A stretch of 64,000 nt of DNA from Cyanophora paradoxa CCMP329 (lineage: Eukaryota > Plantae > Glaucophyta): the NCBI GenBank assembly GCA_004431415.1, contig QPMI01000521.1, positions 1 to 64,000 of the forward strand, read 5' to 3'. Each line of letters opens with the position of its first letter. The first letter of the stretch is position 1. Under the pieces are notes generated by a model. The model was given only the letters and a program-made list of their open reading frames with translations, was not told the DNA's origin and searched no databases. This document shows positions 1-48,905 of the stretch, piece by piece. Position numbers and translations under genes: made by a program.

Positions 1-2
1 CA

Positions 3-193
3 GTCACAGGCGTCACAGTCAATTAAATAGGTGTCACACCCGATTATCTGACCATTTTCAGTAAGACCATCTGAAATTCTGAATTTCTCAGTGTCAACTA
101 ACTCGGAAATCGCAATACTCTATGTTTCTCCGATTTCTCCAACCCTGAAAACACACCTGTTATTCTCTCATCTATCTCATGAGATACTCTCGT
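3..193. repeat. Left terminal inverted repeat (visible part), reverse complement of 25365-25555
   Basis: 191-bp reverse-complement match read directly. It includes the last ~95 nt of the AdoMetDC gene. Confidence 0.9.
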
Positions 194-1427: not shown

Positions 1428-2425
1428 ATGCCTGTGGATTACATCGAATGAGCCTTTCAATACAATTTCGGGAGATGGACCAACTTCGAGTTTTATTGCT
1501 CGCCTCCCCAGCACCTATGAATTTGTGAGAGCCAGTAAGACTGGTTTCAGCAGAATTCTATAACAGCATTCCCATGGTGAGTGGTGAAACCAAAGTAGGA
1601 GATGTGACAATAGATAATGCAATCTACCTTTATTGGTCTGAATATTATTCTGGTGCAGGAAGCACTGTATTCCAAACTGATCGACCTGCTGCCGATTATG
1701 AGCAATGGAAGCACATTGTGATAAGTCGCAGCACACCCATTCAAACCACCAACAACTGGTGAATGTAATTAACTCCAAACTTGCATGAGAGAGCCCAGTA
1801 GCAATTCGCTGTAAATGGGATGATACACTGAAACGAGTAATATTCCATTCCCACCATACCGTTTTACCTGGCTTTCTCAACTGCAATAAACCCAACCAGG
1901 CGCAGATTCAGAGGTTTTTGAGTTCTGCTCGACTGCTTGTCTTGATCCTGGGAGATATGGTAACACCCCAATCCAATCACAGTTTAAATACTCTGACTGA
2001 TGGTATCTTTACTGGGTCGATGGTGCATGGTATCATATCTTCATTTGAACCTGAAAAGACCAGGGATAGTGTTCTGTTTGTGAGAGTAAAGGAGTTGGGT
2101 GATCTGGTTCAATGTGGTGATGGTCTCCTCACTGGATATTTCCACAAAATCGTTGTTCAGATAAAGATTATGGTGAGCATGTCGTTTATAATTCGACAGA
2201 AGCCCATCGATTTATAAATACTATAACAAGAATCTGGACTTTCCACATTTTCGGTTGATATTGTGAATGCAGTTAATGAACCAATGATTTCGAGGGTCAA
2301 CCTGTCCACCTCACCTTCGAAATTCGATATGGTGATGAACCTGCTGGTGATCCTGTGTACGAATACTTTAAGAGGAGAATGCGGAAACACATCCATCTTA
2401 TCCAGTTATTGCGAATTTTGCGTAA
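1428..2425 (+). pseudogene. Minor capsid protein/penton A (heavily frameshifted)
   Basis: Fragments MPVDY, RLVSAE, YLYW, VRVKELGDLV...GYFHKI and IRYGDEP align with the intact 57632-58588 gene. Confidence 0.72.
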
Positions 2426-2479
2426 AATCAAGGATCATTGGTGAATTTTTTATGTTGCAGTATAATAAAAGAGATAATC

Positions 2480-3846
2480 ATGGATATTACTTCGACCCTC
2501 CAACGTCTTTCTCTGAAAGAAGCTCTAACAACCCCGGAGAAGCCAAGGCGTTCTTCTTGGACAACTCTCTCATGCTTGGTCTTGAATCCAAGTCGAAGCC
2601 AGTTCTTGTTGTTGTGAACCCAAGCAACACTTTCGAGAATAATGCTGGAAATCGCATTTCTTTCAAGCTCCCTCGCTACAATTCTGTGGAAAACTCGAAC
2701 TTGCGTTTGACCTTCCAGCTGTCACTTTGCTGGTGATACCGACCTTGTTCGCAATGGATACGTTCGCCCAGTTGGTGCTCTTGTCTCTCGACTTGAAATT
2801 ACCTATGGATCTTACACCTTCCATGTGCCTTCTGATTTCCTTGCTCATTTCCTCTTATCTATTACAGTGAGGATCAACTCGCAAGAAGAAGCGTTCAATG
2901 GAATGGTTCATGGTATCCTGCCCATGGAACCAACCGACTTGGTGGGTCATTTTTCACTGAAATCCCAGTCCCATGGCTAAACCACTACCTACCTCTTGGT
3001 GCTCTCTCAGGAGAAATGGTGGTAACTGTCTGGTTCAAGGATGCTGGAAAGGGTTATGTCGAGACTTCTTATGGTGGTCGTGCTCTTCCTGTTGTTGGTG
3101 GAACAGCTGCTGATAAGACAGAAGATGATGGACTTGGTGCTACTGCTAATGCTACTCTTGCCCATGTTGGTCAACAAATCACCACTTTTGGAATTGGTGC
3201 AACAACAACCCCCGAAATTAAAGTCACTTCTCCTCGTCTTTACATGCATGCTATTAATGTTTCTGATGAACTGTTTGCTACTGTCATTGAGAAGGTGAAG
3301 ACCACTGGTATGGCTATTCCTGCTCTGGATATTGGTTTTGTTGACAGTGTCAATTTTGCTGCAAAAGGCAATGCTCAACCAAATCGTATTAACCTGTCAC
3401 AGATCTCTGGTCTTGTCTATGGTCTTCTTGTTTCAGTTCGTGATGCCGCAGGTATTGATGGTTTCAATGGTTCCCACAGTGTCCTAAAAACGCATGCTAA
3501 CTCAAAAGACATTACTTTCACTGTTGAAATTAATGGTCAACGTCTCTATGCTACTGAGCCCATCCCTCTCCTCAAAGGTGCCGAATTAATTGCGGATGCC
3601 TTCAAGTGCTCAAATATGGACAAGGTTGCAGACAAATATGTCCTCAGTGGTCTACCATTCTGTGTTGATGGAGAGAAAGCGATTCGCAACATTGCCCAGT
3701 CTGGCTATGTTGATCTCACGAACTCCTCCTCTTCTTTCCTTACTCTATATATGCCTTCTGACCAGACAATCACAGTTAATGTTCGTGCTCTCATGCACAG
3801 TTTCATTATTGTTGACAAAGATGGTCTTCGTCGCATTAATCTGTAA
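2480..3846 (+). pseudogene. Major capsid protein (double jelly-roll, PLV-sized ~455 aa; 5' half frameshifted)
   Basis: Lies between penton and ATPase and is strongly similar to 56193-57580 (RINLSQISGL, ELIADxFKCSN, GLPFC, GLRxxNL). Several 1-nt deletions in 2530-2920. Confidence 0.78.
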
Positions 3847-3908
3847 AACCATTATCAGTAACAGTTTGTTATTTTTATCTATCTTTAATAAGAAAGATCT
3901 ACAAAGCC

Positions 3909-4691
3909 ATGAACGATTTAGAAGAGTTTAATGCAGGCGAAATGATAACCCCACCATTTCGTGCTCTTTTCATAGGAAAGTCTGCAACAGGCAAGTCAGA
4001 ATGTGTGAAATATTGGTTGAAACAGCTGCATGATGCGAAAAAGATTGATACTGTTCTTGTTGTGAGTGGGACGTCCTTCAATCATTTCTGGGATGCAGTT
4101 GCAACATTGCAACTCGGGAAATGGGATGCTGCTTACATTTCCAAATTACTGGATGAAAGGCAGGAGAAAATCGAAAAAGGGGAACCTGTGAATCAAATGT
4201 GTATTGTCCTTGATGATTTAATAGATAATGAGTTAGTCGATTTAACTCGCGATAAAATTGTTGGCTCTGTTTTCAATCGCGGAAGACACTCGGCAGTATC
4301 CTGTATCTGCATAACTCAGAAATTGCGTAAGGTTTCTTCAACAATTCGAGTAAATTCGGATTATGCTGTGTTCCTGAGTGCTGCTAATCGCAAAGAGCTC
4401 GAAGCAATCGAGGAGGAATACAATATCATGCGAAACAAAGACGATTTCTATAAGATGTTTGAGGAGTATGTGCACTCTTACCAATATATTGTGTGGTCTT
4501 CTGCGAATTATTCGGTGAACTATTATGTTGATAAAGCGGATCTGGTTAAAGACTTTAAGTTTCCTCGGTTCCACAGGAAGCCCAAAAAGAAAGAGGACGA
4601 ATTACCACCTCCACAGAAAGAGGAAGCCCCCAAAGAGGTCAAGAGTGGTGTTCATTCGAATAAACTGATGCGATATAAGAGAGGTTTGTAA
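3909..4691 (+). CDS. A32-like genome packaging ATPase
   Basis: Walker A GKSATGKS, Walker B IVLDD, RGRH, ITQ...IRVNSDY. Confidence 0.92.
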   Translation: MNDLEEFNAGEMITPPFRALFIGKSATGKSECVKYWLKQLHDAKKIDTVLVVSGTSFNHFWDAVATLQLGKWDAAYISKLLDERQEKIEKGEPVNQMCIVLDDLIDNELVDLTRDKIVGSVFNRGRHSAVSCICITQKLRKVSSTIRVNSDYAVFLSAANRKELEAIEEEYNIMRNKDDFYKMFEEYVHSYQYIVWSSANYSVNYYVDKADLVKDFKFPRFHRKPKKKEDELPPPQKEEAPKEVKSGVHSNKLMRYKRGL

Positions 4692-6285: not shown

Positions 6286-6337
6286 ATCCGGAGAAATTAA
6301 TTTCTCCATTAAGTATAAGAAGCCCCCGATTTTCGAA

Positions 6338-8699
6338 ATGAACGCTGCCGCCAAGAAATCCCTGAAACGCCTTGTTGACTGGCTTCGTGAAGACGATGTC
6401 CTGTCTGAGAATCTCGTAATTCCTGTTGATCCTGATACCAAAAAACCCTTTTCGCTCATAAAGACGGAGCCTGGAATTGGGATAAATTCGATGAAGCCCT
6501 GAAATCCGGTAAGTATACTGCTTGGGGCATTCTCGCTCGTAATATCATGGTAATTGACTTTGACCAAGAGGAGGATTTCGCCAAATTCGAGGAGCAATTC
6601 CCTGATGATTTCGGTGGTGTCAATCCTCTTGCTAAAACCAAAAAAGGATATCATGCATTCTTCGCTCGACCTGCTGAATTCGACACCATTAAGATCTGGG
6701 ATAAAGCGGGTGCATTCAAAGGAAACCCAAGATCGATTGCAAAACAATTGCATCCACTGGGACTGCTGGGGTAATTAATGTTTGTCCCAGTCCCAACAAA
6801 ACCTGGATCAGAGAGCCATGGGCATCTGAGTGTGAGTTAAATGAACCCACTGCTGAGTTGCAAAAGTGGATTGTTGACAACTACGAATTCCCCAAAGGTG
6901 CACATTCTTATATTGTGAGGAGCATTGAGGAGAATTTGCAGAAACACATTCTTTCTAAACTCGAAGAATTCGGTTTCATCTTGCCCACAATCATCAATGA
7001 GACCAAGATGGGATACAATTTCACTGCTGAGAACAAAGGTCTGATCTGTCCCTGCTGCAAGGGAAGCCATGACTCAAACAATTGGTATATTATTCAAGGG
7101 AAGGAGAAAGACAAGTACATTGTTTCGAGTTACAGTGCAAACTGCAAGAAGCGAAGCATCACTGTTCGTGTGAAGGAAGAGACAGATGTGAAGATCGAAA
7201 ATCTGATTGATCGGTCTGCTGGATCTGATGGTGCCCATTATGATGTTGCACAGGTTGCCTATCTTGTTCTGCAAGACAAATACAAGTATTCCAACAAGAC
7301 CTGGTTCAAGTTCAATGATATATGTGGGATTTGGGAGTTGGATGAAACTGGGAAGCGAATCTTTCTCTGTTTGAGCTGCAAGGTCTGTCCAGTTTATCTT
7401 CAACGTTCTGTTCAACTCGCACAGAGAGCTCTTCGTGATGAAGAGAACCGCAATTCCTTGGAGGAAAGGTGAAAGATTCTGCTGGGAATTGCTAAGAGCC
7501 TCAAACAGACTACATACAGAACTGCACTTATGTCTGATCTTTCAGTTCTGTTCAGTGACAAGACCTTTTTCGAGAGACTTGATACTGTTCCCAACATCAT
7601 AGGATTCACAAATGGTGTATTTGACTTGAACTCCATGACTTTTCGACAGGGACTCCCAGATGATATGGTGAGCAAGACTGTTGGCTACGATTATACCACA
7701 GAAATCGACCAAGAGAAGGTTGCAAAGATTAAGTCCATCTATGCAGATATTATTGAATCGGATACAGACCGCGAATTTATGTTGGGATTAATCGCCTATG
7801 CCCTGAGTGGTTTGACAGAAAATCAGAGATACACTTGTTGGACTGGAATTGGAGCAAATGGGAAATCTCTGCTCCAAGAGTTGGTGAAAGACACATTTGG
7901 TGAATACTATGGGTCACTGGATATGACCTATTGGACGAAACCCAAGAAGAGTTCATCAGAGGCTTCCCCAGAACTCGCTTGCATCCTTGGTAAACGAATT
8001 GTTTTCAGTAATGAAGCAGAAGATGGTGATATGCTTCAACTGAACAAAATCAAACAAGTTACTGGTGGGAATGAGATGAAGGTTCGAACTCTATTCAAAG
8101 ATCTTGTAACATTCATTCCCATGTTCCAGTTGTTCTTGTCTACAAATGACAATCTGGGAATCAGTAAACCAGATGCAGCAATCCAAAGGCGAATTATCTA
8201 CTACCGATTCGAAAATGTCTTCAAGGTGGAACCTCAACCTGGTGAGAAGAAGGCAGACACCACTCTCATGCGCCTCATGAAGAATGATGATGATTATAAA
8301 ATGGCGCATATGTCCATTCTCCTGGAAATGTGGAGAACCCATTCTCTCAATACATTCGTCACCAAACCTCCCCAGTCCATTGTTGATCAAGGTATGGAGT
8401 ATTTCAATGAGAATGACAAGATTGGAGAGTGGATTCGAGAGAATTATGAACTCACCAAGAGTCAAGGCGATTTCACTACAAGTGAGTCCATCATGAGTGA
8501 CTTCAAGAGAGACCACATGGGCAAATCTGATGAGAAAATCTCAGATTGCACCATTATGAAGAGACTTCGCGAAGTCTTTAATGTGAAGTCTGACAGAAAA
8601 CGAGTGAATGGTGTACTTTGCCGTGGTTACTTTGGGATCATAAAGAAGCATGGTCGCAGATTGATGGATGACAGTGATGAGGAGGTTGGGGATGAGTAA
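6338..8699 (+). pseudogene. AEP (Prim-Pol) primase fused to a Zn finger and D5-like SF3 helicase (2 frameshifts, 1 in-frame TGA)
   Basis: Primase motifs VIDFD, TKKGYH and KIDCK...GVINVCPS; CPCCKGSH; Walker A GIGANGKS, Walker B FSNE, motif C STN, AIQRRI. TGA at 7470-7472 is in frame with ORF 7530. Confidence 0.88.
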
Positions 8700-8764
8700 A
8701 TAAAACGGAATCAATACTTATACTGTGAATTTCTAATTTTTTAAAACCCTTACTGTAAATGGTT

Positions 8765-8910
8765 TGTGTGACAGGTGTGACAGGTATTTTAATTGACTGT
8801 GACGGGTGTGACAGGTGTGACAGGTGTTTTCAGGAGTCTGAGGATTTTTAAAAAGTTTAAAAAGTTTGAAAATAGGTGTCACACCTGTCACACCCGTCAC
8901 ACCCAATTAA
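8765..8910. repeat. Palindromic TGTGACAGG iteron array around an AT-rich core (origin-like)
   Basis: 9-bp repeats in opposing orientation flanking an A/T-run spacer, right after the helicase gene. Confidence 0.75.
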
Positions 8911-9053: not shown

Positions 9054-9320
9054 ATGGATTATTTCGATGAAATTCGGCGGCAGCTTGTCGAAAAGAATGA
9101 TATTGCAGAGGTGGCGGATTATATTGCAAAGATCAAAGCAATTAACGGTAGACCCTATCAAAAGAAGCGTGTTTATGCAAGCAGACTCGACACAGTAAAT
9201 GTATATGTCCCAAAGGCACGAATGTGCGAATTATCAGAACCTGAAAAATGGGAAATGCGTTTAAAATGCCCAAAAATAATATGTTCCCTTAAAGTAAAAG
9301 ATGCCCCGCCAATCCAATAG
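9054..9320 (+). CDS. Hypothetical viral protein
   Basis: ORF downstream of the early motif, overlapping the pPolB start. Confidence 0.45.
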   Translation: MDYFDEIRRQLVEKNDIAEVADYIAKIKAINGRPYQKKRVYASRLDTVNVYVPKARMCELSEPEKWEMRLKCPKIICSLKVKDAPPIQ

Positions 9321-12300
9321 AATCATCAAAGAGAAGAAAAACGAAATACTCGGTCTTTTAGGAACCCTTTTAGTTACTGGTGATATTACAGAATTCGAAT
9401 ATGATCGCCAGGCAGCAATCTTGGATAGGAGACCAAGGTTATCTCAACTCACAGAAATTACAAATCGCCTCTATGATCGTTTTGAGAAAATGGAGGATTT
9501 CAGGGATGAAGGTTTAAGGTTGGGAACAATTGAACCCGAGATTGAGGATGGGGAAGCAATGAACAAAGCATATTCTTGGTTAACCTATCGAGCAAGAGGG
9601 GAGGTTATCCAAGATGGGATTGAATTCTTGGAGAGAATTGCACCCACTCTACCTCAGAGACTCAGACAGAAACTCCAAGACCTGAGAGCAATTGAGACTC
9701 GGTTGACCTTCATTTGTAAATTCACCAAAGTGAGTGATCCAAGGGTGTGGATCACCAAATTCATTTACAGTGATTACTTTGTCATCACAAGATCACGAAA
9801 TATTGATGTTGAACTGCGAAATGCCCTTCAATCCATGCAGGAGCAGATGATGCAAGTTGACAGTTACAGACTGGATCGCATTGAGATGCTCAGAGTAGTA
9901 ATAATGTCCTATGCTCCTGTGGGTGGTTGCTTCTTCTCAACACCTGAGTGGATTGGATTAAAGAGAGCAACTGTGAATGTGAAGAATATTGATGGTCAAG
10001 ACTGCTTCAAGTATGCAATCTTGGCTTACCTGCACCGAAATGATATTAATAAACACAAGAGCAATGAACCCAGCCAGTATAGAAGATGGTTGAACGAACT
10101 CAATTTCGAGGGCATCCAATTTCCAGTTGCCTGTGATGCAGAGGTGATTGATCGATTTGAGGAGCAGAACCCTGAACTGAGTATCAACATTTATGGGGCA
10201 GATAATACTGCACAGTGTTTCTATCCTCTCCACCAATCCAGCAACCCCAGGAGAAAGACCAAGATTAACCTTTTATTAATCGAAAACGAAGAGGATGATA
10301 GAGGGCATTATATCACCATCATGTCTCTGAGTAGACTTCTGAAAACCACCTTTGATAAAGCCCATGATGGTCGCATTTATTACTGTGAGACCTGTCTGTC
10401 TCGTTTCAGAACTCAGGAGAAGCTGGATGTACATATAGAAGCGAATCGCTGCATTGATTGGAGGGAGAGCAAAGGTAAATGCCCGAAATCTGGAAGTCAC
10501 ATTGCATTTGGTCTGCAACACCTTCGCAAAACTGTGTGGCTTCCCGCTATCTGCTATGTGAAAATGGATAGTCACTCGGTTCCAATTGATGAGAACCGCA
10601 GTAAGAGAGAGGTAAAATCGGTTTCTCTAACAGTTGTGATGGGGGATGAGGTGATCTCTCATTATTTTGATGGATCAGATCCCCTTGGTGCTCTGTTTAC
10701 CACTCTCACAGAGATCAGACCCAAGTAATTCGCACTCTATTCACCAATATTCCCATGCATCCACTCACAGAGGAGCAGAAAGCACAATACAAGATCACTA
10801 AACACTGTTATATCTGTGCTGAACGATTTACCCATGAGAATTTCCCAGTGAGAGACCATTGTCATCAATCAGGAGCTTTTATTGGAAAAGCATGCCGAAA
10901 CTGCAACCTCCACAGGAGAATCTCAAAGCAAACGAAAGTAGCAATTGTGGTGGATCACATGGATGAATGTGGACACGAAATATTCCGCAAAATTGCACAG
11001 CAAGATGATAAACTTCGTGTTGAGATCCTGAGCAAGAATTTCGATCAATACCTCTCTCTGCAATGGGGCATGTGGAAATTCATAGATGCTTCGCACTTCA
11101 TGGACTTCCAGGCAGTGGATGCAAGTGATCTAATGGGTAAATTCCAGAAATTCCGAGAATTGGCGTTTTCCCAATATGGATTAGATCCTGCCCATTATGT
11201 TTCGGCTCCTGGATTGTCCTGGGATGCAATGCTAATTTACACCAGAGCAAAGATCGAGCAGATCAGTGATGTAGGGCAATAAGAATTTATTGAGAGGGCA
11301 ATTCGAGGTGGGTTTGCTACAATGCCTACTCGATATGCAAAGGTGGAAAACCCAGATGACCATATAGTTCTCTTGGATGCAAATAATCTGTATGGTTATG
11401 CTCTCATTCAAGAACTGCCCATTGGAGATTTTCGTTGGGAAGATGTCACAGAGGCACTTAAAGAGACCCAAGGACGAAGTGCCTTTATTGAAGTTGACCT
11501 GGAATACCCACAAACTCTCACAGATCATTACGATTTTCCACTTGTAGTTAATAAAGAACATGTCACCACCGAAATGCTGGGTGGGTATCAACAAAAACTA
11601 CTGGATATCACAGGTGAGAAGATAAGCAAAGACCCCAAACTCACAGCAACATTCTCGCCCAAAAACAACTATGTGATTTCCCAACCTCTCTTGATCTATC
11701 TTGTGAGCAAAGGTATTATAATCACGAAGGTTCACAGGGTTCTCTCATTTGCAACCTCTGCATTTATGAAGAGTTATATTGATCTAAATACGAAACTGAG
11801 GCGCCAATCTATGTCCAGATTCGAGAGTGACTTCTTTAAATTAATGAACAATGCAATCTATGGTAAATGCCTCGAATCATGCAGGGGTCGCTCTGTGGTT
11901 AAGATTGCTAACAGTGAGAAACTCTGCAAGAAATATGCTGCAAGTCCACTCATCAAGGCAACCAATGTATTAAACGAAAAAGCTGTTGCCTTTGAGATGT
12001 ACTCAAAGCATGTTCACTTAGATAAACCTGTTGCAATTGGTGCTTTTGTGCTGGATTTCGCGAAACTCCATAATAGCAGGTTCTTTTATGATGTGGTGAG
12101 GAGAACTTGGGAAACAGCAGAGCTACTATTCCATGATACAGATTCTTTCTGTCTACTGCTGCATACAAATGATCTAAATAATGAGATGAAGCGAATTTCT
12201 GAACACCTGGATTGCAGTAATTATGATACTGCCCACCCTCTCTATGATAGGAGAAATCGCTTGATTCCAGGTAAATATAAAAACGAGTTTCCCAATGCAA

Positions 12301-12581
12301 AGATTGTGGAGTATGTAGGTCTGAGATCGAAACTCTATGCTTTCAGAACTGAGACCTTTGATAAAATAAAAATGTCTGGGACTTCCTCCAAAGAGGTTCA
12401 CTTTGATGATTTCAAAAGATGCTTGTTTGAAGGAATCACCAAAACAGTAGCAGTAGTAAACAAGCGAAGACAAGACCACAACCTATATGATTTGGAGAGC
12501 AGAAGGGTGGCTCTAAACCAACTCGATAGCAAAAGGAAGATATTAGACGATGGAATTCACAGCATTCCATTTGGGCTCTAA
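9301..12581 (+). pseudogene. Protein-primed-type family B DNA polymerase with vOTU-like and endonuclease-VII-like Zn domains (frameshift ~10723, in-frame TAA 11280)
   Basis: DCFKYAI...GHY; CYIC...RDHCH...CRNCN; AIRGG, LDANNLYG, KLMNNAIYGK, HDTDS, GLRSKLY. Confidence 0.9.
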
Positions 12582-12764: not shown

Positions 12765-14259
12765 ATGCCTTCTACACAAATAGGATTGAGACAACCACCC
12801 AGAATTGTTAGAAAAGAAGCAATTGAAGATCGAGGAATATTCTGCCCATCACAGTTCCAGTGGAGGAGAAGAGCAGTCGAATATTAAAAAGATCAGAGAT
12901 GGTCAAGCAATTAATTCCAGAGACCCTCCCAGCTGAGACAGCACCAAAAGAGTCGAAGATTGCTAAGAAGTTCTATGATCCCAGAACAGGTTACAAGGGA
13001 TTTACTGCAATGAGACAGGAACTACCAGAGGAGAACTACAAGAAAATGAGAGAATGGTATGATAAGCAGGAGGTTGTCCAAATTAATGCACCTACCCTAT
13101 CTCGAAAGAGAGATCCCATGATTCCAATTAGGCAACCCCTTGATACATATGTGATTGATCTGCTCTTCTTTCCTGCATACAAAAAGCAGAATGATGGTTA
13201 TGATACATTTATGAGTGCAATGGAATCAACCCTAAGAACTGGGTTCATCATTCCAATGAGAGACAAGAGTGCTCTTACTACACTTGCAGCATTCAAGCAA
13301 CTTGAACAGAGAGTCCCCAGACCAATTGTTCGCATTCAGAGTGATAGTGGAAGCGAATTTACCAATGTCTTATTCACAGATTATCTGGGAACCAAATTCA
13401 TTGAGCATCAACTAAGTGATGTTGCAGATCACAGAACCCAAGGTCGGATTGAAGCCTTTAACAGACAGATCAAGAGATTAATCACAAACTACTGCATTGC
13501 AAATAATACTGCACGATTTTTTGATGTGTTGGGTGATATTGAGTATAATTATAATAATACCATTCACTCTGCAACCAAGAGAAAACCAGCAGAGACCACA
13601 GAAGCCCACTACAAAGAGATTGTGAATATGGAGGATCAGAGATTCAAGAAATCGATTGAGTATCTTGATGCTCTGAAACCTGGAATGTTTGTGAGAGTGA
13701 AAGTTGAAAAGAACCCATTTGCAAAGCAGGGAGTTAATTGGTCTCGAATTGTTTATAGTGTGGAGGGCAGAGAGGGCTTCAAGTTCAGAATCAGAAGTCC
13801 CAGTGGTGAGATAGTTGATGGTAGATTCGCTTTTCATGAACTGCTGCCCATTAAAGGCGTTGAGTATCATGAAACTCCCACAGTGGATGCTCTTGAACAG
13901 GCAAAGGAGGAAGCCAGGGTTGATTCAGCAATCAGAAAGGAGGGCATAGAAAAAGCAAGTGAAGTACCAAAAGAACCCTTACAGAAGCAAGAGCACAAAA
14001 GAAGGGTAGAGTAGAGAAAGAATTAAAGAAGTTGACCATAGCAGGAACCAGAAATTATCAGAAGTTAACAGTCAGAGATGGTATAATGACTTTTCAACCA
14101 CCAAGGAAACATATACTGCACCCCAAACTCGATTCAATCTACGAAGTGGGCAGAGGAAATAGATTAACAACGCTTTCGGAATCTCTTAGACCTCTGGCGA
14201 ATTTTTCTCATTTGTCTATCTTTTTCAAGAATTTCCAAGAAGAAAGTTTCAAGGTTTGA
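12765..14259 (+). pseudogene. Retroviral-like (rve) DDE integrase of Polinton type (frameshifts ~12835 and ~14010)
   Basis: YVIDL, IQSDSGSEF, RIEAFN, YNNTIHS, SH3-like PGMFVRV. The tail (KKLTIAGT) matches the element 2 integrase once a 5-bp TAGAG duplication is removed. Confidence 0.88.
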
Positions 14260-14446: not shown

Positions 14447-14570
14447 TTATTTTGTTAGTGCCCGATCTCGACGAAACCTGATAGCCGCTGGCGAGAGGAT
14501 TCCGAATCTGCTTTCAGAATTGAAAACGGAGCAGTTGGTAATAAAATACATATGTATGACCGAGATTGAT

Positions 14571-14680
14571 GGAGTTTCAGTGAAGTTTCGGTGAAGTTTC
14601 GGTGCGAAGTTTCGGTGAAGTTTCGTAGCGAAGTTTCTATGAAGTTTCGGTGAAGTTTCGGTGAAGTTTCGGTGAAGTTT
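14571..14680. repeat. 11-bp tandem repeat (GAAGTTTCGGT)n
   Basis: About 9-10 imperfect units read directly. Confidence 0.9.
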
Positions 14681-14827
14681 TGAGTGACGTCATGAGTGTC
14701 GTTTCGGTTCGCGAACAATTAAGTGGACATGGCGGCGTCCCGTCGTTTTTTTGAAAAGGTGTCCTCGAAAATCGTGCCCCGTCACTTTCGTGAACCGGTG
14801 TCCTCGAAAATATATCTTATCCTGATG

Positions 14828-15063
14828 AAAAAAATTGGTTGCGCGTCATCGCAACCATCATCGCAACCATGGTTGCATCATCGCAACCGTCATCGCAACC
14901 ATGGTTGCATCATCGCAACCAGGTCGCGCAACCACTCAATCGGAAAAAAATTGGTTGCGCATCATCTCAATAGTTAAAAAAATGGTTGCGCGCAACCAGC
15001 GCAACCATGGTTGCATCATCGCAACCATCATCGCAATCGCAACCATGCAGGTCGCGCAACCAC
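14828..15063. repeat. CATCGCAACC/GGTTGCG satellite-like repeats
   Basis: Three blocks starting AAAAAAWTGGTTGCGC with multiple CATCGCAACC units. Confidence 0.85.
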
Positions 15064-25058: not shown

Positions 25059-25460
25059 ATGAATACTCATCGAGGCTTCCATGTGATGCTGGATTACAAA
25101 TTCAGAACCCAATTAGCAGTAGGAGTGGAAGACTTGGAGACAACGACCAGGTGGTTAATGCAGTTCTTACAAACTATTATTCAAGAGCAAGGTATTCGAG
25201 TAGTTCACAAGCATTGCGAGATTTTCGATGGTGGTATTTCTCCTCCTGGTTTTGCAATGGTTCTTCTGCTGGATGAGAGCCACTGCACTGCTCATTGTTA
25301 CTCAAATGAAGGTATGCTGGCGATTGATATATTCAGTTGTGGATTAGAAGCAGAGAGAAAAACCACGAGAGTATCTCATGAGATAGATGAGAGAATAACA
25401 GGTGTGTTTTCAGGGTTGGAGAAATCGGAGAAACATAGAGTATTGCGATTTCCGAGTTAG
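25059..25460 (+). CDS. speD: Prokaryotic-type S-adenosylmethionine decarboxylase proenzyme (SpeD/SpeH family)
   Basis: GFHVMLD...F...PPGF...LLDESHCTAHCY...AIDIFSCG, with the ESH self-cleavage motif and the conserved CG. Confidence 0.85.
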   Translation: MNTHRGFHVMLDYKFRTQLAVGVEDLETTTRWLMQFLQTIIQEQGIRVVHKHCEIFDGGISPPGFAMVLLLDESHCTAHCYSNEGMLAIDIFSCGLEAERKTTRVSHEIDERITGVFSGLEKSEKHRVLRFPS

Positions 25461-25555
25461 TTGACACTGAGAAATTCAGAATTTCAGATGGTCTTACTGA
25501 AAATGGTCAGATAATCGGGTGTGACACCTATTTAATTGACTGTGACGCCTGTGAC
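25365..25555. repeat. Right terminal inverted repeat, part matching the window start (probably extends to ~26719)
   Basis: Reverse complement of 3-193. Confidence 0.9.
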
Positions 25556-25932
25556 AGGTGTGACACCTATTTTCAAACTTTTTAAAATTCTCACAAATTA
25601 CAGACTTCTGAAAACACCTGTCACACCTGTCACACCCGTCACACCCAATTAACAAAAGACTCTATTTCTTACTGAGATATTCAAGAATTTATTGTTGTCT
25701 TACTGAAAACAGTCTATGTGACAGGTGTGACACCTTCAAAATCCACCCAACAATAGTCGATTTCATGAATACCTTTCTGTCTTACTGAAAATGGTAAGGA
25801 GACCAGGTGTGACAGGTAGTTTAATTGAGTGTGACAGGTGTGACAGGTGTGACACCTATTTTCAAACTTTCTAAATTTTTCAAAAATGACAGACTTCTGA
25901 AAACACCTGTCACACCTGTCACACCTGTCACA
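25519..25932. repeat. Two subterminal copies of the palindromic TGTGACAGG iteron module
   Basis: Copies at ~25530-25652 and ~25820-25932, homologous to 8765-8910. Confidence 0.85.
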
Positions 25933-26045
25933 GACATTCTACCCCTCTTACTGACTTTCTCAAAAACAAATATATCTATTACTGAATATCATTTGAATAC
26001 TACCTGTCACACTTGAATTCAATTATTCTGTTTTATAGAACATAT

Positions 26046-26303
26046 GCAATCTAATCGATTGTTCAATTGGAGACCATGCAACTCTGTGACACTTTTTCGA
26101 TCTAAAATATAAATCCGCAATCTCATCGATTGTTTAATTGGACATAATGCAGTTCCGATATATTCCAATAGAAAATCCCGCAATCTAATCGATTGTTTAA
26201 TGGGAGATAATGCAACTCTGTGACACTTTTTCGGTGCAAAAATGTACATCAGCAATCTCATCGATTGTTCAATTGGACACAATGCAACTCTGTGACACTT
26301 TTT
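26046..26303. repeat. Four 63-72-bp subterminal direct repeats
   Basis: GCAATCTMATCGATTGTTYAAT...TGCAACTCTGTGACAC units start at 26046, 26117, 26180 and 26252. Confidence 0.85.
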
Positions 26304-26622
26304 GCGTTTTTCGATACAGAATGGGCGGTGGTCTACTTCAATACATGAGAGATATATCGAGTTTATGCGAATTTATGCAATTTAATCGCAATTATATCGA
26401 TCTTTAAGCAGTTTAATGTTAATCTATCGCAGATTTGTATGTAAACAACAAAGTACATAATCAATCGATATAAGATCAATTGAATCTATCGAAGTTTAAT
26501 CGAAAATATGCATTTTGGTAAACGCGTTTTCATTTTTAATACAAAGTTTGCATTATTTTATACAAAGTTTGCATAAAAAGTTTAAGAAATTAATCGAAAA
26601 ATATGTATTTTAGTATTAAATT

Positions 26623-26719
26623 AACACATATTGAAAAACGAATTTAAATCCAGAGTGAATCGAGATCGCGAAGCGATCGAGATGAACGAGGGATTTAAAT
26701 TCGTTTTTCAATATGTGTT
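26623..26719 (+). other. Terminal 97-nt hairpin with GCGAAGC loop and tandem G.A mismatches
   Basis: Perfect 29-bp arms 26623-26651/26691-26719, centred on 26671, at the AT/GC junction. Confidence 0.85.
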
Positions 26720-32416: not shown

Positions 32417-33329
32417 GCCAGTCGACGTCGCCCCATGAACAGCTGCAGCTGGCCCCTGTTCTAATTTTCGATTTCTGAATTTCTGATCCCGGGGAGTCCC
32501 ACTTAAACAGCTTGCCTTACGTATACTACGTATACTAAGTTATTCTCGAGCCGGTTGTAGACCGTCGGACTTTCAATTTCTCATAATTACAATCATGATC
32601 ATGATCAGTTCTGCCTTGAGCTTTCGCAAAAGTTTTAAAGCAGTTGTTTCAACAGCCGTATTTAATATTTAGTGTGTATTCCGATCGCGAGGTTCCGGCC
32701 CCACCCACAGCTGCAGTGACTTCCGAATAACGCGTGCCTCGGGAGCTTGCCGCAGTCTTCAGTCTTTATTACCTGTGATGTAGTTTAACGCAGTACAGAA
32801 ATTTCAACGATGCTTCGGCCTGATGTGCTCATACGCATGCGCAGTATTAGTGTTCCGGCAATTGCCTACAGGATCCCGGACACCGGCATGCGCAGCTTGT
32901 ACCTGGCAGCTTGTAAAAGAATTCAATCCGGAAAGCGGCGCCGGCATGCGCAGATAAATATAACGCCTCGTCTCGCGAATATTGCGCGAATTCGAATATT
33001 CGTATATCATATACCGATATCGTCTCGCAAATACTGCGCGAATTCGCGATCGAATATTCTTTTCGCGCCCGGCCCTTATTCCCTCGAACCTCAGGGTCTC
33101 GAAATTAATATTGTTTATCCAATGATTCATTCTCGAGGGGCCCTAAAGCTGGACCTAATCTGCAATTCAAATCTGGTACTGGTGCCGATTGATTAGCCGG
33201 AGATGACCGTCGGACATCTTCGCCCCCCGGGGCCCGGGCCCCCTTGGGGCTGCGACTGCGATTTTAAATCTCAGCCTGCAGCAGTTTGTCTGCAACCGCA
33301 TGCATATGAGCAGACAGCGTGCCTCATGA

Positions 33330-36300
33330 TCAGTCCTCGGGGCCGCTGGGGGCGGCGAGGAGGGCCCGGGCGCGGCGGAGGCGGCCGCGGGCCTTCTCGG
33401 CGAGGGCGGCCCCCCGGGGCCCGGGCCCCGCCGGCGCCGCCCCGGGCTCGAGCTCGCGCAGCGCCGCCGCCGCGTCCCGTTCCGCGTCCGCCGCCCGCGC
33501 CCGCCCTGCCCCGCCCCGCCTGAGGCCGGCCGGGCGGGGCCGGGCGGGGCGGGCACCGCCGAGGGCGAGGTTGCACTCGGCGCGGTTGCCGAGGGCCGCG
33601 GCGCGCGTGAGGCGCGCCTCCGCGGGGCAGAACCCGAGCACCGCGCCGTAGACCAGGGCCGCCAACTGCCGCCCGGCCGGAGCCCCTCAGATCACAGAGT
33701 TCGAATGCATAATAACGGACCACATAATCTTTGTCTGCGAAGTGCTTGTTGCCAACATTCTGCGACCCATTGAGAAAGGGGGAAGGAGTCTTATTCAACC
33801 TAAAAGCAGAGGCCGGGCCTTGCCTTGAGGTTCTCGGCCTGGCGGGCGGCGAGGGCGGCGAGCCCCGCCTCCAGCGGGGGGCATTCGGCGGGGAAGTGCC
33901 CCCGCAGGCGCGCGTGCGCCGTGAAGAGCGCTGCGGGGCCCCCGCGCGAACTTTCAAGCATATGGAGAATTAAAAAAGAATAAATAATCAAGCTGGAGCA
34001 CAGTGCAACAAAGCGGGCGTGAAAGTGGATGTGGTCTCGGCGACTTGCAATTGAACGTTCTGTTAACGTTAACGGTGTTTATGATCGCGCTGAGCAATAT
34101 GGAAATCGGAATGAAAGCGGAGTTCGAACCAGAACGTTGACGCCGTGGCCAGGGACGCTGCACATGCCCTCTTCGGGGTTGTCCAGCCCGAAGAGCGAGT
34201 AGCCGCCGTGAAACGGTCCGCTTCTCCCGCCCATGCAGACAGGCAGCAGCTGCGCGTGCATATATGCGGCGTTCTAAATGGCGATCGCTCTTTCAGAGCG
34301 CCGGGGCACCCTCTGGAGGAGCGGGGCGTGGGGCAGGACGGCGCGCGCGTGCTCCGGGAAGACGCAGAGGTCCGCCAGGCAGGCCCCCAGCTCGAGGCCC
34401 TCCTGCGTGTGCGCAGGGGCGAATATACTAGGGGCCCGGCCGCGATTCTCGCGCCGGGGGTGCAAGGGGGGAATCTGGATCGAATGAAAGAGTAGTAGTG
34501 GCACGAACATGCACGGGGCAGATGTAGATCGACCCCGGCCCAGCGCGCGCGGCAGGTTGAAGTAGTAAAGATAGAGACAGATTATATGTGATTGTAAAGA
34601 GTAGAAAAGGGCTGATAAGCAGACGCTGCGATCTACAGGAGACAGCTGATAAGCGAGGAAGCCGAAATCTACAGGAGACAGCTAGCTATAGGGAGAACTG
34701 GTTCCATGCAGAACCGCGGAAGGAATTCGAAGACCGGAATTAGAGAGAAGTTGGTTTCCAGGCTTCAAGTCGAGGAAAACTGGTCTTCGCTAGATCCGCG
34801 GAAGGAATTCGAAGATCGGAATGAGAGAGAAGTTGGTTTCCAGGCTTCAAGTCAAGGAAAACTGGTCTTCGCCCTCGAAAACCTTTTTTTGCATGGACGG
34901 CCGCAGCGACAAACACGTGTCGCTGCAACCGAATTTCGGCACATTTTTGTTGCAAACTGGACCTCGAAAACGGCCTCATAGAAAACTTTTGGCTGAAGCG
35001 AGGGAACGGGAAGCAAGGGGGGAAGACCTGCGGTCTTCTTTCCCCCCTTGCAATCTAAATCATATATCAATTGTATAATCATGATGTCGATCAATATATA
35101 TTGATCGGCGTCACCAGGGCCGGCCCGGCCGACTACCTACGGGGAGTTCGCCTCACCGGCCGGCCGCGGGCTCTTGCAATTAAATATTTCAATTGCAAAC
35201 TGAAATTTAAATATGCAATATTAATTGAATTGAGCGCACCCAAACACGGGACTGGAGAGCCTGTACCAAATCCTCGGACTTCGGCTCGTCCTCTTCAACA
35301 AGGCAGCAACTGCGGTCCGGGGCGAAGCCAACTTATATGAGCAGAATACACGCCTGGGCTTCACTCAACGTCCTCACTTCTTTGCTGCACTCAATGTCCA
35401 AGAGGATGTGCGCTGTCGCCGGTCCTCGTCAAAGTGGAAGACGACCCTGCGATCGATATCGCGACCACGCATAGGAGGGAATTCGAAGCCAAAAGGCGAT
35501 CGCAGAGGACGGCAAAGCACAATTTAATTATAGCGCTAGCGACGCTGGCAGAGGAAAAGCTGTAAATAAAATATCCGGACACGAGGAAAAAAGCACGATT
35601 CCGATCCGGATCCGGGCAATGTACAATGCGGGCGGGCCCGGATCCGGAGCCCTCGCGCGCGCACCACTCGAGGGCGCCGGCGAGGACGGCGACGGGCTCG
35701 CCCGGGGCGGCGAGGAACGCCGCCTGCGCCCCGCGCGCCGCCGCCAGCTCCGCCCCGTGCCCCTCGTGCCCCGCCGCCACCAGCCGAAGCCGGCCCCCGC
35801 GCGGGGACGCGGCCGCAGGAGGCCAAGGGGCGGCGGGAGCCTCGGGGGCGGCGGCGGCCGGGTCGCCGATCACGACGGGGGCGAAGAGGAGCTGGCGGAG
35901 GCAGGCGGAGGCGTAGAGGGGGGTACTGTCCTCGGGGTAGAGGCGGGGCACGGGGCGGGCGGCCGAGGCGAGGTGCAGGAGGGCGGGGACGAGGCCGGGG
36001 TGCCGGGCCAGCCGCAGGCGGAGCTCGCCGTGCGGCGCCGCCACCGTGCACAGCTGCGGCCGCGTCAGGGGCGGGCAGAGCAAATTTTAGAGGCCCGGCT
36101 CGGCCGAGAAATCGAATTTCAAAGGCAGAACGTTTGTCAAGAAGTGAGCGACGGATTTGTGGGTCAAAGCGGTGAAGCTGCAAGAATATGCATAAGAGAT
36201 CCCCGCAGTCAGCTTGATTCGCACGCACGTGCACGCACCGCGGGGCGTACGCCGATACTCGCTTTGGCGTTGGAAACATTTTGCACACCTCCGGCGCTGC

Positions 36301-37691
36301 GCGAATATTAATCCGAAAACCAAAGCCTACGCGAAATATTTCACGAATTAGAGCATGCGCACCTTCTCGAATTTCTTCGAGGAGGCGATCGGGCCCGATG
36401 CGGGCCTGCTCGAGGACCGCGTCCAGGAGCCCCGACGAGAAGAGGCGCTCGGAGAAGGCGAGCGACGTGCGCCGCAGGAGGACGATGGCCAAGTGGATCG
36501 CTTCGGAGCGGAGCTGCGGGAACGTGGCCGTGGGGGGGTAGAGCGGGGTGCGGCGTGAGTCGCGACTGGCATGCGAGCGCGCAAATGCAGGCCATATCAT
36601 GACATAAATAGATGAAGGAAATTAAATAAAAATAACATCGCCAAGTGCCAATTAGTATGATAAGATATCGATGCAGATATTGCGCGCGCGCGCGAGCCTT
36701 CGTCACTCCTTGCTTCATCGTGCGGGCCAGGCTCTCCACGATGTCCGTGTTCTCATGAATCTTGCAATTAGCGCGCGTTCATGATCAAAAGCATGAAATC
36801 GAATGTTTTTAATCGAAGTATACGTATACGTAGCTATATCAATAAATACTATGATACATGCGCATGCCATGATGCAAATCGAAATCGAAACCAAATTAAA
36901 GCGCACGGAATCCAGTTCGTCGCGAATGGGGTCATAAACATGCTCGTGATCACGAATGTAGGAGTGGAGGAACTCGCACGCCGCGGCGGCGACCACTGGC
37001 CTCTCGTACGCGCCGACGAGCTGGCGCGCGTCTGTGTAGGCACGCGCGAACGCACACGCGCGACGAACGCACCTCGGCAAGCAATGAAAGGGCCGCCTTG
37101 AAATCGTGCACATGCTCGGGCCGCCCGGGCCGCTGACGGCGCCGGCCGTCTATTTTGAAATCTTCGACGATTGCACGCGCCCATTTCTGATCATAAACGC
37201 GAAGGTCAATATAAATCATAATTATACCGAATTGAACGTGCATGCGCATGCACATAGTGCACGTGCTCAATCGAAGGCGCCGCTCTCGCGAGGTCTAGAG
37301 CTAACTGTAGAGCTAAATTAAATATTAATCTATACCGTCGGATAAATATTAATCTATACCGTCGGACATATTTCATCGCGGGCGCGCGGGTCGCGATCGG
37401 CGCCCGCGCTCCGATCGATTTTCGCGCACCAGCTTTTCGCGCCCGCGAGCGCTCTGATCGATTTTCGCGCATGCGCACCAGCTTCGTGGCGAGGCCACAC
37501 GAGGGAAGCGTCATGAGCTTCTCAGATGCGATCCTCACCCGCTCCTTGGGCGCGCATTTGGCGAAGCAGCGCAGGCAGCTGCAGCCACGCGCACAGCGCG
37601 CCGCGGCCGGCCCCGTCTCGCATCCTTCCGACTCCCCTTCGCTGTCGGTGTCCCAGTTGAGCTTCGCGCGCTCGGAAGGAGCGAGCGGCAT
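33330..37691 (-). CDS. Host multi-exon helical-repeat protein with C-terminal TPRs, copy A (5' end uncertain)
   Basis: AENLK-NVGNKHF...Y...AAALGNRAEC...AERDAAAAL...KA TPR pattern. Inverted paralogue of 38060-41227. Confidence 0.6.
34430..35055 (-). mobile_element. Non-autonomous Helentron-like (HINE/DINE-1 architecture) insertion in an intron
   Basis: 13-bp subterminal IR TGCAAGGGGGGAA (34461/35040), internal IR forming hairpin 35013-35051, stem-loop 34435-34458, internal ~77-bp duplication. Absent from the paralogous intron. Confidence 0.5.
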
Positions 37692-38059
37692 GGTTTTGGG
37701 GCGCGATCGCCGGGTACAGCAATTGTCAAATTTGAAAGCGTACCCCGCGGCCGGTCCGGAATCCGGATCCCGGAGTCCCGGACGATTCCGCCGAGCTCGA
37801 GCGCGCGACACACTCGTCGAGGACGCCGCCCTCCGCAACGTTAACGTAAACACGACTTGCGAAGCGCCGGGTGCGCGCGGGCTGCCCGCAGTCATGGGGG
37901 CGCGTCGCAGTCATGTTGACTGCAGTCATGGGGGCGCGTGCGCGCTCAGAAACTCTTGGAATGCGCTTGCCCGCACTTCAGTCGCTCGCCGAGGTGATAT
38001 CAACAATGCGAGCTCGAGCCGCGGCCGGCGCCGCGGGGGCCGGGGTGGTGATATCGCGA

Positions 38060-41000
38060 TGCTTGACCATTCTTGCATGCGCAGCTTGCCGGCATGTACG
38101 AGCGGCCAGCAGTCGCTGCGAAGGCTTTGAAAACTCTGCAGGAGTACGTGCGCGATTTCGAATTGTACGAAGGCGAAGAAGGCGACGTCGACGGCTTTCC
38201 GAATGCCGTGCACCGCGGCGCCGCATATAATTACCCTGAACCGCATTGACCTCAAGCTTGCTTAGATCTACGAGAAAACGAAAATCCTGGAGAGCCTCGC
38301 TCGCGATCGCACGCTCAAGCACGGCGTGACGAAGGTTCGAATTCAATCCCCGCGCGCGCGCCTGCAGCGAATCGATATCGAAATTCGAATTCAAAGCTCC
38401 TTGTCGAATGATCGTCGCTGTGCTGCAGCTTCGCTTCGACGCGATTCACACCGCCGTCCCCCTTGTGCCGCGCACGTCGCTCGCGTTCTCCGAGCGCCTC
38501 TTCTCGTCGGGGCTCCTGGATGCTGTCCTCGAGCAGGCTCGCATCGGGCCCGATCGCCTCCTCGAAGAAATCAGAGAAGGTTCCTTGCATGTCAAAATCC
38601 TATCCGTGCCTTCAACAAGCGAGCGCACATTTCGATTTTTAAGTTCGGCCTCGCGCGCAGCGCCGGAGCAGTGCAGAATGTTTTCGAGCATCCCGCAGCG
38701 TGTGTCGGCGTACGCCCCACGGTGCTCGAGAATCAGTTTGGCCAGCCAGCCAGCTTAAACTTGAAATTAAAGTCCCGGCCGAGGCTTATTTTGCCCTCAC
38801 TCCCCCGCGCCGCAGCTGCGCCGCTATGATTCAAGTGTATCAATGCGACGTCCACTTTTGCAAAAAAAAAATGCGCCGCTATGATTCAAGAATCCGTTGG
38901 CCACTTCTTGACACACGTGCCTTCTGAATTTTCTCTGCTGAGCTCCTGCCCGCCCCTGACGCGGCCGCAGCTGTGCACGGTGGCGGCGCCGCACGGCGAG
39001 CTCCGCCTGCGGCTGGCCCGGCACCCCGGCCTCGTCCCCGCCCTCCTGCACCTCGCCTCGGCCACCCGCCCCGTGCCCCGCCTCTACCCCGAGGACAGTA
39101 CCCCCCTCTACGCCTCCGCCTGCCTCCGCCAGCTCCTCTTCGCCCCCGTCGTGATCGGCGACCCGGCCGCCGCCGCCCCCGAGGCTCCCGCCGCCCCTTG
39201 GCCTCCTGCGGCCGCGTCCCCGCGCGGGGGCCGGCTTCGGCTGGTGGCGGCGGGGCACGAGGGGCACGGGGCGGAGCTGGCGGCGGCGCGCGGGGCGCAG
39301 GCGGCGTTCCTCGCCGCCCCGGGCGAGCCCGTCGCCGTCCTCGCCGGCGCCCTCGAGTGGTGCGCGCGCGAGGGGCCCGAGTCCTTCGAATTCGATTTTC
39401 TGATCCGACGCGGGCCCCGCTCACGCTTCCGCCAGGATCATACTTGAGGAGGACTTGCACGAGCGCTCCGCCTGGTTCGGGGCCGCCTCCATGTGCGCGC
39501 TCGCGTGTGCCGGCGCCGCGTGTTTAATTTCGTATGCCATGCGTTCCGCCTGCACCTGGTCATGACCACGCCCATCGCCGGCGCTGCGGCAGGTGCTGCC
39601 TCCACAGTGCGGACGGGCCCGAACCCGGCTCGCTCGAGAACGCCGTGGAGGCCCGCGCAGAGGTGAACGCTCACCCTGGACGTCCCTTCCCTCCCGCCTC
39701 CCCCTCTCCCCCTCCCCCTCCCCTCGCCCGATCGCGACCTGCCGGCCCGCAGCAAACGCGCGAGCTCGCCGCGTGCCTGGCGGACCTCTGCGTCTTCGAG
39801 GAGCACGCGCGCGCCGTCCTGCCCCACGCCCCGCTCCTCCGGAGGGTGCGAAGCCCGCTTCCTGAATAATCGAACCCCAGGCTCAAGCTGTAGATTAAGA
39901 GAAGCGCCTCAGCTTTTCGCGGTCTGCGTGGGCGCGGATTCCGACCCGATCTTCGGGGGCTACGACGGCGAGTTCGACCCGGACTTCGGGGGCGTCCCCC
40001 ACTACAACTGGAAGGTGCCAGGCTGCGGTCGCTTGCACTTATATTTACAGGCGCCGATCACGCGAATTTTAATACATGCATGTGCTGAAGCCGCCCGCCC
40101 CCTACCCCGCCCCCCCCTCCCCCCCCCCCCTCTCCTCCTCCCCCCCCCTCTTCGCCTCGGGAGAGTCTGAGCTTCGGCCGGCAGCACGTCCGGGACGGCG
40201 CCGTCCCCCTCGTCTTCACGAACGCGCTCCTCCACTGTGCGCCCCGGTCCCTCTTTATCTGTCTGTGCCGAGGCGGCGCGGCCGATGGTGATCCTGGCGG
40301 CGGATCCGGCGCTGGCGGGCCGGGGCGCCCGGCCGCGCGCCTCTGGATCTAGATCTGCTGTGGGGCGGCGCCGCTGACCGCTGCGCGGGGGCCCCGCAGC
40401 GCTCTTCACGGCGCACGCGCGCCTGCGGGGGCACTTCCCCGCCGAATGCCCCCCGCTGGAGGCGGGGCTCGCCGCCCTCGCCGCCCGCCAGGCCGAGAAC
40501 CTCAAGGCAATTGCAAGCCCCGGCCTCTAGATCTGCTTCCAGATATCGATCTAACTATAATCTTTGAATTTCCCCGGGGGGCCCCTCTTCTTAATTAAAT
40601 CGTTTCCCCTTTCTTAATCAAATAGTTTCCGCTCTCTTTATTGATTCGTTTCTAGATCTAGATCTACTTCAAATTCCCCGGTTTTTATGGTTTATAATTA
40701 TTGAATCGTTTCTAAAGCGTTTCGCGCGCAGGGCATCGGCGACGAGCACTTCGCCGAGAAAGAATACGCGGTCCGCTCTAATTTGTCTTGCTCGCATCGC
40801 CCGGCCGGCAGGCCGGCAGTTCCGGCAGTTTGCCGCGTCCGGATCCGGATCCGGATCCTGATCCGAGGGGCGCCGGCCGGGCGGCAGTTGGCGGCCCTGG
40901 TCTACGGCGCGGTGCTCGGGTTCTGCCCCGCGGAGGCGCGCCTCACGCGCGCCGCGGCCCTCGGCAGCCGCGCCGAGTGCGCCCTCCTCCTCGGCGGTGC

Positions 41001-41227
41001 CCGCCCCGCCCCGCCCCGCCCCGCCCGGCCGGCCTCAGGCGGGCGGGGCAGGGCGGGCGCGGGCGGCGGACGCGGAACGGGACGCGGCGGCGGCGCTGCG
41101 CGAGCTCGAGCCCGGGGCGGGGGCGGCGGGGCCCGGGCCCCGGGGGGCCGCCCTCGCCGAGAAGGCCCGCGGCCGCCTCCGCCGCGCCCGGGCCCTCCTC
41201 GCCGCCCCCAGCGGCCCCGAGGACTGA
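38060..41227 (+). CDS. Host multi-exon TPR protein, copy B (5' end uncertain)
   Basis: Exons homologous to copy A, with blocks near-identical at DNA level. Confidence 0.62.
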
Positions 41228-41587
41228 TAGTGAGGCACGCTGTCTGCTCACTGCAAAGCTTGCAGCTTGTAAATATTTATAGATTGCATAGAACGACTTT
41301 GACTAATTGAATATATGAGTGCTGAGCTGAAGCTTGCAGTTGGGAGTTGAGGTGCCTGAAGCTTTAATTTCGCGTTTGGTCGCATGGTGCTTATATAATT
41401 GGCATCTGAGCCTGCTTGCCAGCTCGCTCCCCCGCCAAGACGCTGATCATGAGCACGATATAGATCGTGAAACGCTCTTCGAGAAGTTCTTCGCTTCGAA
41501 TCAAAACTAAGCTAATGGCGGATTCGAGAACAACTAGTACTAGTCCAGTTGGAGGCCTAGGGCCGTGCGAGGGGGGCCCGGGGTCGC

Positions 41588-46686: not shown

Positions 46687-46928
46687 TACTGTAAACGTAC
46701 GAATTTCCGCCAGCGTTTAATTTCGACTATATTCGCCAGACCCTCGCGCTGTCGAATATTTGACGCTGGCGAATTAAGCCTTTGTATGGAGAGAGGGGTA
46801 CCAGCGGCTGACCTCTCTATGGCGAAGTCGCAGGGTGTCGAAATCAAGACGCTGGCGGACTAATTTTCGACAGGATTTTCGGGTTTTGTCGAATTAAAGT
46901 GCTGGCGGATATTTGTACGTTTACAGTA
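46687..46928. mobile_element. MITE with TA target duplication (Tc1/mariner-pogo type)
   Basis: TA-CTGTAAACGTACGAATTTCCGCCAGC ... GCTGGCGGATATTTGTACGTTTACAG-TA. Confidence 0.82.
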
Positions 46929-47692: not shown

Positions 47693-47752
47693 ACGCATGG
47701 ACCTCACACCCGGGCAATTCCGCTTCGCTCCATTGCCCCCGATTCCATGCGT
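47693..47752 (-). other. Hairpin with GCGAAGC loop and GGA/GGA mismatch at the inferred left end of element 2
   Basis: - strand GGGCAAT-GGA-GC-GAA-GC-GGA-ATTGCCC (47712-47738) plus an outer 9-bp stem 47693-47701/47744-47752. Confidence 0.6.
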
Positions 47753-48903: not shown

Positions 48904-48905
48904 TG

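Follow-up and report, generated by a model that had tools for sequence, protein, structure and literature searches.

A candidate replication origin behind the D5-like helicase gene of an integrated Polinton-like virus, and the inversion of its core

The palindromic repeat module that follows a D5-like helicase gene in the DNA analysed here (a stretch of 64 000 nucleotides, called the window) is probably an origin at which an integrated Polinton-like virus begins to replicate, and the helicase that reads it would be the one encoded directly upstream. In the same reading, to which we give a probability of about 0.7, the inverted core of the module is a rare rearrangement that became fixed, and not a product of each round of replication. 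As a candidate origin the site is well supported by comparison. If the reading is correct, a bacterial satellite origin design works in the integrating viruses of eukaryotes, and travels with its helicase. The design itself is already known; what this locus adds are the copies within the terminal repeat and the test of flipping, and the flip is the less important part. The locus combines a defined 120-bp site with an intact protein domain and repeats that can be mutated, so that the origin question is directly testable.

The viral element and its repeat modules

GC-rich DNA (55–78% GC) occupies 27–46 kb of the window, with an AT-richer element on either side. The first element runs from 1 to ~26.7 kb, and past 27000 the GC content jumps from 39% in the element to 75% in the host DNA. 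Its right terminal repeat has a perfect inverted copy at the start of the window (Table 1), which thus begins within the left terminal repeat. Its genes are those for the A32 packaging ATPase, the rve-type integrase, patatin and the D5-like helicase, together with the split PolB-like gene and fibre-like genes. Terminal inverted repeats (191 nt visible, at 100%), packaging ATPase, integrase and PolB-like gene are Polinton-like traits; from the sequence we read the element as an integrated Polinton-like virus and infer that its host is a eukaryote. The putative capsid gene is so labelled from its position, without a family match: the candidate at 3016–3846 matches nothing in Pfam or PHROG, and a gene 53% identical to it adjoins the ATPase of the second element of the window.

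About half of the sampled words of the window occur in public runs of one organism (20 of the 24 runs listed), and no RNA run carrying them is among those listed. In three runs the depth of exactly matching contigs in the terminal repeat is, among the pieces listed, 2.1–2.4 times that at the helicase end and 13–37 times that of the host flank, and in 3/3 runs the contig depth drops ~100-fold past 26760. Depth is not equal to copy number, and the values fit a multi-copy element with two repeats each.

The second Polinton-like element, at ~46200–64000, has an intact pPolB gene (49093–52419), rve, A32 and patatin genes and two HNH-AP2 genes; its visible part is without a helicase and without a TGTGACA array. 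It contains a 41-nt inverted repeat at 46687–46928, and a GTGAC-rich block stands twice, near 48200 and near 48850. Within the first element, 14558–15036 is a non-coding block that opens with tandem repeats of 11 bp, after which come CATCGCAACC repeats of 12/20 bp. The GC-rich host DNA holds nested long inverted duplications at 33307–41250, up to 439 nt at 99%, and eight long ORFs of the host stretch found no match in Pfam.

Table 1. Positions in the window of the features of the first element.
Feature	Position	Strand	Remarks
Left terminal repeat, inner part	1–193	-	Cut by window start inside the left arm of B's mirror copy
Putative major capsid gene in pieces, and A32 ATPase (3909–4691)	2284–4691	+	Pox_A32 E 7.5e-12
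Helicase gene, broken 5′ part, likely primase domain	6300–7472	+	Stops and frame change; in-frame stop 7470–7472
D5-like SF3 helicase, intact 389-aa C-terminal part	7530–8699	+	Pfam D5_N, DUF5906; ASFV C962R E 2.5e-14
Left flank of A	8749–8782	+	CTTACTG-AAATGGT box, which B and C have too; two outer TGTGACA repeats follow
A left arm	8789–8822	+	Three TGTGAC[AG] repeats, 9-bp spacing
A core	8823–8876	.	70% AT; orientation opposite to that of the B and C cores
A right arm	8877–8910	-	Three repeats opposed to those of the left arm; perfect over 25 bp against that arm
Protein-primed PolB-like gene, split	9301–12581	+	Three ORFs; phrog_1907 E 9e-5; weak match to the intact pPolB (49093–52419)
rve-type integrase	12899–14014	+	Pfam rve E 0.0014 (below Pfam cut-off); 28% identical to rve of the second element
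Right terminal inverted repeat	25365–26719	.	25365–25555 100% complementary to 3–193; outer end at host junction
Module B	25532–25652	.	Core 25566–25618; within right terminal repeat
Extra TGTGACA copies, terminal repeat	25717–26297	.	At 25717, 25726, 25808, 26005, 26085, 26219, 26291
Module C	25820–25932	.	Core 25855–25907; oriented as B, 289 bp further out
Terminal hairpin, 97 nt	26623–26719	.	29-bp perfect stem, mismatched inner stem; abuts host junction

The original prediction named three repeat palindromes in this element, and all three are present at the places claimed (module A at 8789–8910; modules B and C as in Table 1). In each, a 53–54-bp core, whose AT content is 70–72% as against 59% for the first element, is flanked on either side by three TGTGAC[AG] repeats spaced at 9 bp, and each module folds as a long hairpin (z −7 to −11). 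The repeats that face each other number 5+3 in A; B and C have 3+3 in their arms. There are 42 copies of TGTGACA in the window where 5.5 are expected, a number that 0 of 100 shuffles reached. Both A and B are found 3′ of a gene, and such arrays are found at just 2 of the 38 ORF ends of the first element. At 8805–8806 and 25548–25549 the two bases that separate neighbouring repeats read GG or CC; these may be micro-inversions, and TGTGACA is itself nearly palindromic.

As flip/flop ends the palindromes would stand at the genome end; A is internal, and B and C lie ~0.8–1.2 kb inside the end. The three modules are not genome ends, and the end has a different hairpin. This terminal hairpin has a fold z of −13, and the host-flank contigs begin at 26690–26697. 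Its tip is GCGAAGC, an unusually stable DNA mini-hairpin. If real flip and flop forms exist in the element, this is the place to look for them. Three of the extra TGTGACA copies of the terminal repeat sit in a 63–72-bp tandem repeat at 26022–26313, three units of which have one TGTGACA each, the number of units differing among contigs (a joint of 26100 to 26047). A gene for AdoMet decarboxylase (25059–25460) starts in unique DNA and ends within the terminal repeat.

The first repeat of A begins 67 bp past the stop of the helicase gene (8699), an arrangement that holds for A only, B and C being away from the helicase. By tblastn one frame continues through the stop in the 5′ part of this gene, of which a three-frame translation was examined too; the Prim-Pol match of this part (E 0.14) is below the cut-off and hints at a primase domain. 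An AF2 model of the helicase (pLDDT 86, from a 24-sequence alignment) superimposes over residues 1–376 on the SaPI5 primase-helicase 7om0 with Z 25.6 (rmsd 4.3, 332 aligned), and through residue 376 reaches Z 30.4 to C962R and 28.5 to vaccinia D5 (8apl). A C-terminal domain of winged-helix type is predicted at about residues 297–372, for which Pfam returned no match. Direct searches of viral and metagenome contigs with the helicase, and with the capsid-like protein, gave no relative. The helicase end (8500–8790) also exists in a sister version, ~88% alike and more abundant, which arm-type repeats likewise follow.

Modules behind helicase genes elsewhere

How general is the placing of such a module behind a helicase gene? 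A metagenome search by DNA pattern alone, the pattern being derived from the module and given a gap of 40–70 (the true gap being 53–54), gave 60 loci. Counted without dereplication, and against helicase references taken from Pfam-named ORFs of these loci themselves, 27 of the 60 have a primase-helicase-type gene whose end adjoins the module towards which it points, while 0 of 60 have one pointing away only. Outside the second eukaryotic family described below, such a gene points at the module in 19 of the 22 loci with at least 1 kb on both sides. Proteins of the VapE, DUF927, DUF3631, DUF3987 and AAA_25 families are taken by us to be replicative helicases. Viral loci were found by a 16-mer (103, of which 80 have flanks), and a gene of the primase-helicase type is present at 17 of 32 repeat-rich loci versus 1 of 48 repeat-poor ones (Fisher P 8e-8). 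Among 22 genome loci, 8 match the same helicase references within 2.5 kb.

The word TGTGAC[AG] follows unrelated helicase families (VapE, DUF927, AAA_25 and DUF3631), and one word serving all of these is odd for a strictly cognate site. The helicase genes that it follows in phages and islands (L007–L062, L104–L163) belong to at least five Pfam families. The 77 closest giant-virus D5 relatives, three of 80 having been dropped as too short, include none with such an array 3′ of the gene, so that the link of helicase and array is not general for this helicase clade; the control ORF ends of that survey have arrays at 0 of 289. When a profile was made from the C-termini of module-linked phage helicases, giant-virus proteins outranked the window's protein, which lies outside the top 20 of 82. 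A wing motif, identified post hoc and not relied on, is shared by the window's helicase with 7 of 16 module-linked proteins, and is present in 0 of 80 giant-virus proteins.

Six copies of the module in one Paludibacteraceae genome have no helicase match within 2.5 kb and have neighbours of other kinds, and thus the module can exist as an orphan. Dispersed orphan TGTGACA palindromes are seen at L249, L251–L253, L257 and L267 of this genome, and at L119, L125, L132 and L162; they are possibly a non-autonomous repeat.

A second family of eukaryotic elements is represented by ten metagenome loci (eight of them distinct), in low-GC pieces of which several contain an rve-chromodomain integrase and several abut higher-GC DNA. 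It has the same repeat word and a similar core, with the module internal once (L110, L156) and near the end once or twice. Its terminal modules stand behind the integrase or some other gene, and in L156 the internal module is preceded by a gene that is only weakly helicase-like (E 0.025). Hairpins are complete at the junction in L127 and L145 and partial in L122 and L139; L118 ends inside one, and L148 gave no match to a terminal hairpin. Two further loci, L168 and L271, are rve-type elements tied to the family through neighbouring genes, and carry other SF3 helicases. Directly after the SF3 helicase gene each has an inverted repeat with a different word, 20 bp perfect in L271, while that of L168 was seen with 5-mers and missed with 6-mers. 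The pattern of these two would fit a cassette of helicase plus origin that is exchanged.

Orientation of the core and competing explanations

Modules A and B were claimed to share the orientation of their outer arms while the core is inverted between them, and the alignment bears this out for A against both B and C. The A core is identical to the B core at 32 of 55 positions as written and at 46 of 54 when reverse-complemented; the corresponding values against the C core are 31/54 and 47/54. The left flank of A is collinear with that of B (37/49, versus 27/55 against the reversed right flank) and with that of C (42/50), and the right flank likewise with B (18/20, versus 11/21 against the reversed left flank). 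Scored as models of A and B, internal inversion reaches 114 and collinearity 83. Inversion of the whole module, the outcome that the original prediction had set against its own claim, scores 53 and is rejected. The breakpoints may lie anywhere in the 25-bp perfect arms (8798–8822 and 8877–8901). B and C are collinear with each other, at 105.5 versus 97.5 for the best inversion. Since A, B and C are paralogous sites, the inverted core does not represent two forms of one site.

The word AACTTTTT, chosen post hoc after the data had been seen, is on the strand of the upstream gene in L110, L168, L271 and B, whereas A has it on the other one. Its placing on the gene strand has a shuffle chance of 0.002–0.009 each in L110, L168 and L271, and as an exact word it is absent from C and L156. 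From this post hoc pattern, the orientation of the A core is probably the derived state.

Do such cores flip in general? The 105 modules of our loci reduce to 90 distinct ones, of which 46, in 13 families, have alignable flanks and cores; four loci from an additional pattern search were used in this test only. In 12 of the 13 families (36 modules) there are no flips in 24 comparisons, an outcome that a 50:50 process would give with a chance of 2^-24. The second eukaryotic family has 10 of 10 distinct modules in one orientation. The thirteenth family, a bacterial one that includes the Paludibacteraceae orphan copies, has core orientations of 6:4, counted as modules and not as events. Perfect arms of 24–25 bp, the longest, are found in just the two flip-bearing families of 14 (the thirteenth and that of the window), the others having at most 23, in a small sample where family size confounds the comparison.

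Three other explanations can be weighed against these data. An inversion of the cores in every replication round, by hairpin transfer or resolution in the style of poxvirus telomeres, is quite improbable, as about half of the 24 comparisons should then have flipped. The modules can indeed fold as hairpins, the bacterial family has both orientations, and in one run a contig of low depth (14.8) joins, among the pieces listed, left-arm-type sequence to the right flank of B on the opposite strand. Yet B and C agree in orientation, the modules are away from the element ends, and no HUH or resolvase family was found among the scanned ORFs of the first element. At C, identical contigs in 3/3 runs lead from the B–C spacer through the left arm into 12–14 core bases in the orientation of the window, a hint only, at a length below the 31-base rule for bridging. 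It is very improbable that the inverted core of A is an error of assembly across its 25-bp perfect arms. Perfect arms of 24–25 bp can confuse short-word assemblers, and among the pieces listed no public contig bridges the flank and core of A, the exact pieces ending at 8785; but the A core differs from those of B and C at 8 and 7 of 54 positions and was therefore not borrowed from them, and a multi-copy element with repeats resolved in one piece suggests long reads.

Nor do the palindromes seem to serve some other process, as hairpin-type transcription ends, as sites for integrase or for packaging, or as orphan repeats dispersed in the DNA, which we regard as unlikely. Hairpin-type transcription ends occur in mimiviruses and virophages, and the position of A and B 3′ of a gene would suit them, as the orphan copies in a bacterium and the terminal modules behind an integrase or another gene would suit one or other of these roles. 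Against them stand the scarcity of arrays at the ORF ends of the element, the strong and one-sided link to helicase 3′ ends, and the change of repeat word where the helicase differs (L168, L271).

We therefore favour the reading of the palindrome as an origin with a core that was inverted once and fixed. On the SaPI/PICI model, the C-terminal winged helix of the helicase would bind the TGTGAC[AG] arrays, two hexamers would be loaded in opposed orientation, and melting and priming would take place at the AT-rich core. A complete element would have five such sites, namely A and, at either end, the B and C of the terminal repeat; those at the ends would perhaps act as end-proximal loading sites. 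The A core may have been flipped by strand exchange in the 25-bp perfect arms, whether by template switching or by conversion from a terminal copy of opposite orientation, and would be tolerated because the origin is two-fold symmetric. Counting against the origin reading are the broken helicase and polymerase genes of this copy, the position of B and C away from a helicase gene, and the PolB-like gene of the element, which might not need an internal origin. The original prediction spoke of internal and terminal origins for the SF3 helicase that invert during replication. Its first half is favoured by the comparison and by the position of B and C in the terminal repeat; its second half is not supported, 12 of 13 families being without a flip. 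A more elaborate scheme is possible but doubtful, in which replication is hybrid: a swappable phage-satellite cassette, primase-helicase with its own repeat origin, would seed the terminal repeats with origin copies that load helicase beside end hairpins able to prime themselves, and the cores would keep flipping at low frequency as internal copies exchange with terminal ones.

Comparison with known systems

Poxvirus telomeres are imperfect palindromes that exist in two complementary forms, made at the genome end by concatemer resolution (PMC8956199), whereas the modules here lie inside the element, and the difference is from one paralogous site to another and not at a single site. Inversion of a small segment between short inverted repeats is a known type of mutation, and chloroplast genomes have hairpin-flanked inversions of 5–50 bp between inverted repeats of 11–24 bp (PMC12928735). 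The inversion at A is of a similar kind, but those described in chloroplasts are without a tie to an origin or helicase gene. The accessible text of PMC5941160 does not address spacer inversion.

The hairpin at the end of the element (26623–26719) matches the terminal palindromes of Halocafeteria virophages and PLVs, which lie in the terminal repeat beside the host junction and have been proposed as replication primers (bioRxiv 10.64898/2026.07.28.741278). Those palindromes belong mainly to non-pPolB elements, however, and repeat-array modules are not covered in the accessible text of that work (section 7). In PLVs associated with entomopoxviruses, inverted repeats were proposed as an origin recognised by the primase-helicase (PMC11296320). 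That proposal is a hypothesis from gene position, in a main text that, as accessible, is without the word 'iteron', and those elements have a tyrosine recombinase where the present one has rve. Unlike them, the element described here has an explicit repeat–core–repeat site both behind the helicase gene and in the terminal repeat. The accessible texts of PMC12220804 and PMC8547959 make no mention of 'origin of replication' or 'palindrom', and a literature search limited to articles outside subscription, without their supplements, found no description of an iteron origin in a PLV, nor of TGTGAC[AG] as an iteron.

In the origins of SaPI and PICI, iterons lie directly 3′ of rep and face each other across an AT-rich centre (PMC9371898, PMC6092414). 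SaPI1 Rep1, SaPI5 PriRep5 and the pri-rep-ori of EcCICFT073 are thus like the present locus in having opposed repeats 3′ of an SF3 helicase with an AT-rich centre, and the predicted fold of the window's helicase matches PriRep5. PICI and SaPI are bacterial phage satellites that lie in a bacterial chromosome and have int, regulators and pri-rep-ori, in contrast to the A32 ATPase, rve, PolB-like gene and terminal inverted repeats found here. By analogy, the palindrome would work like a SaPI/PICI origin, but the element that carries it is not a PICI.
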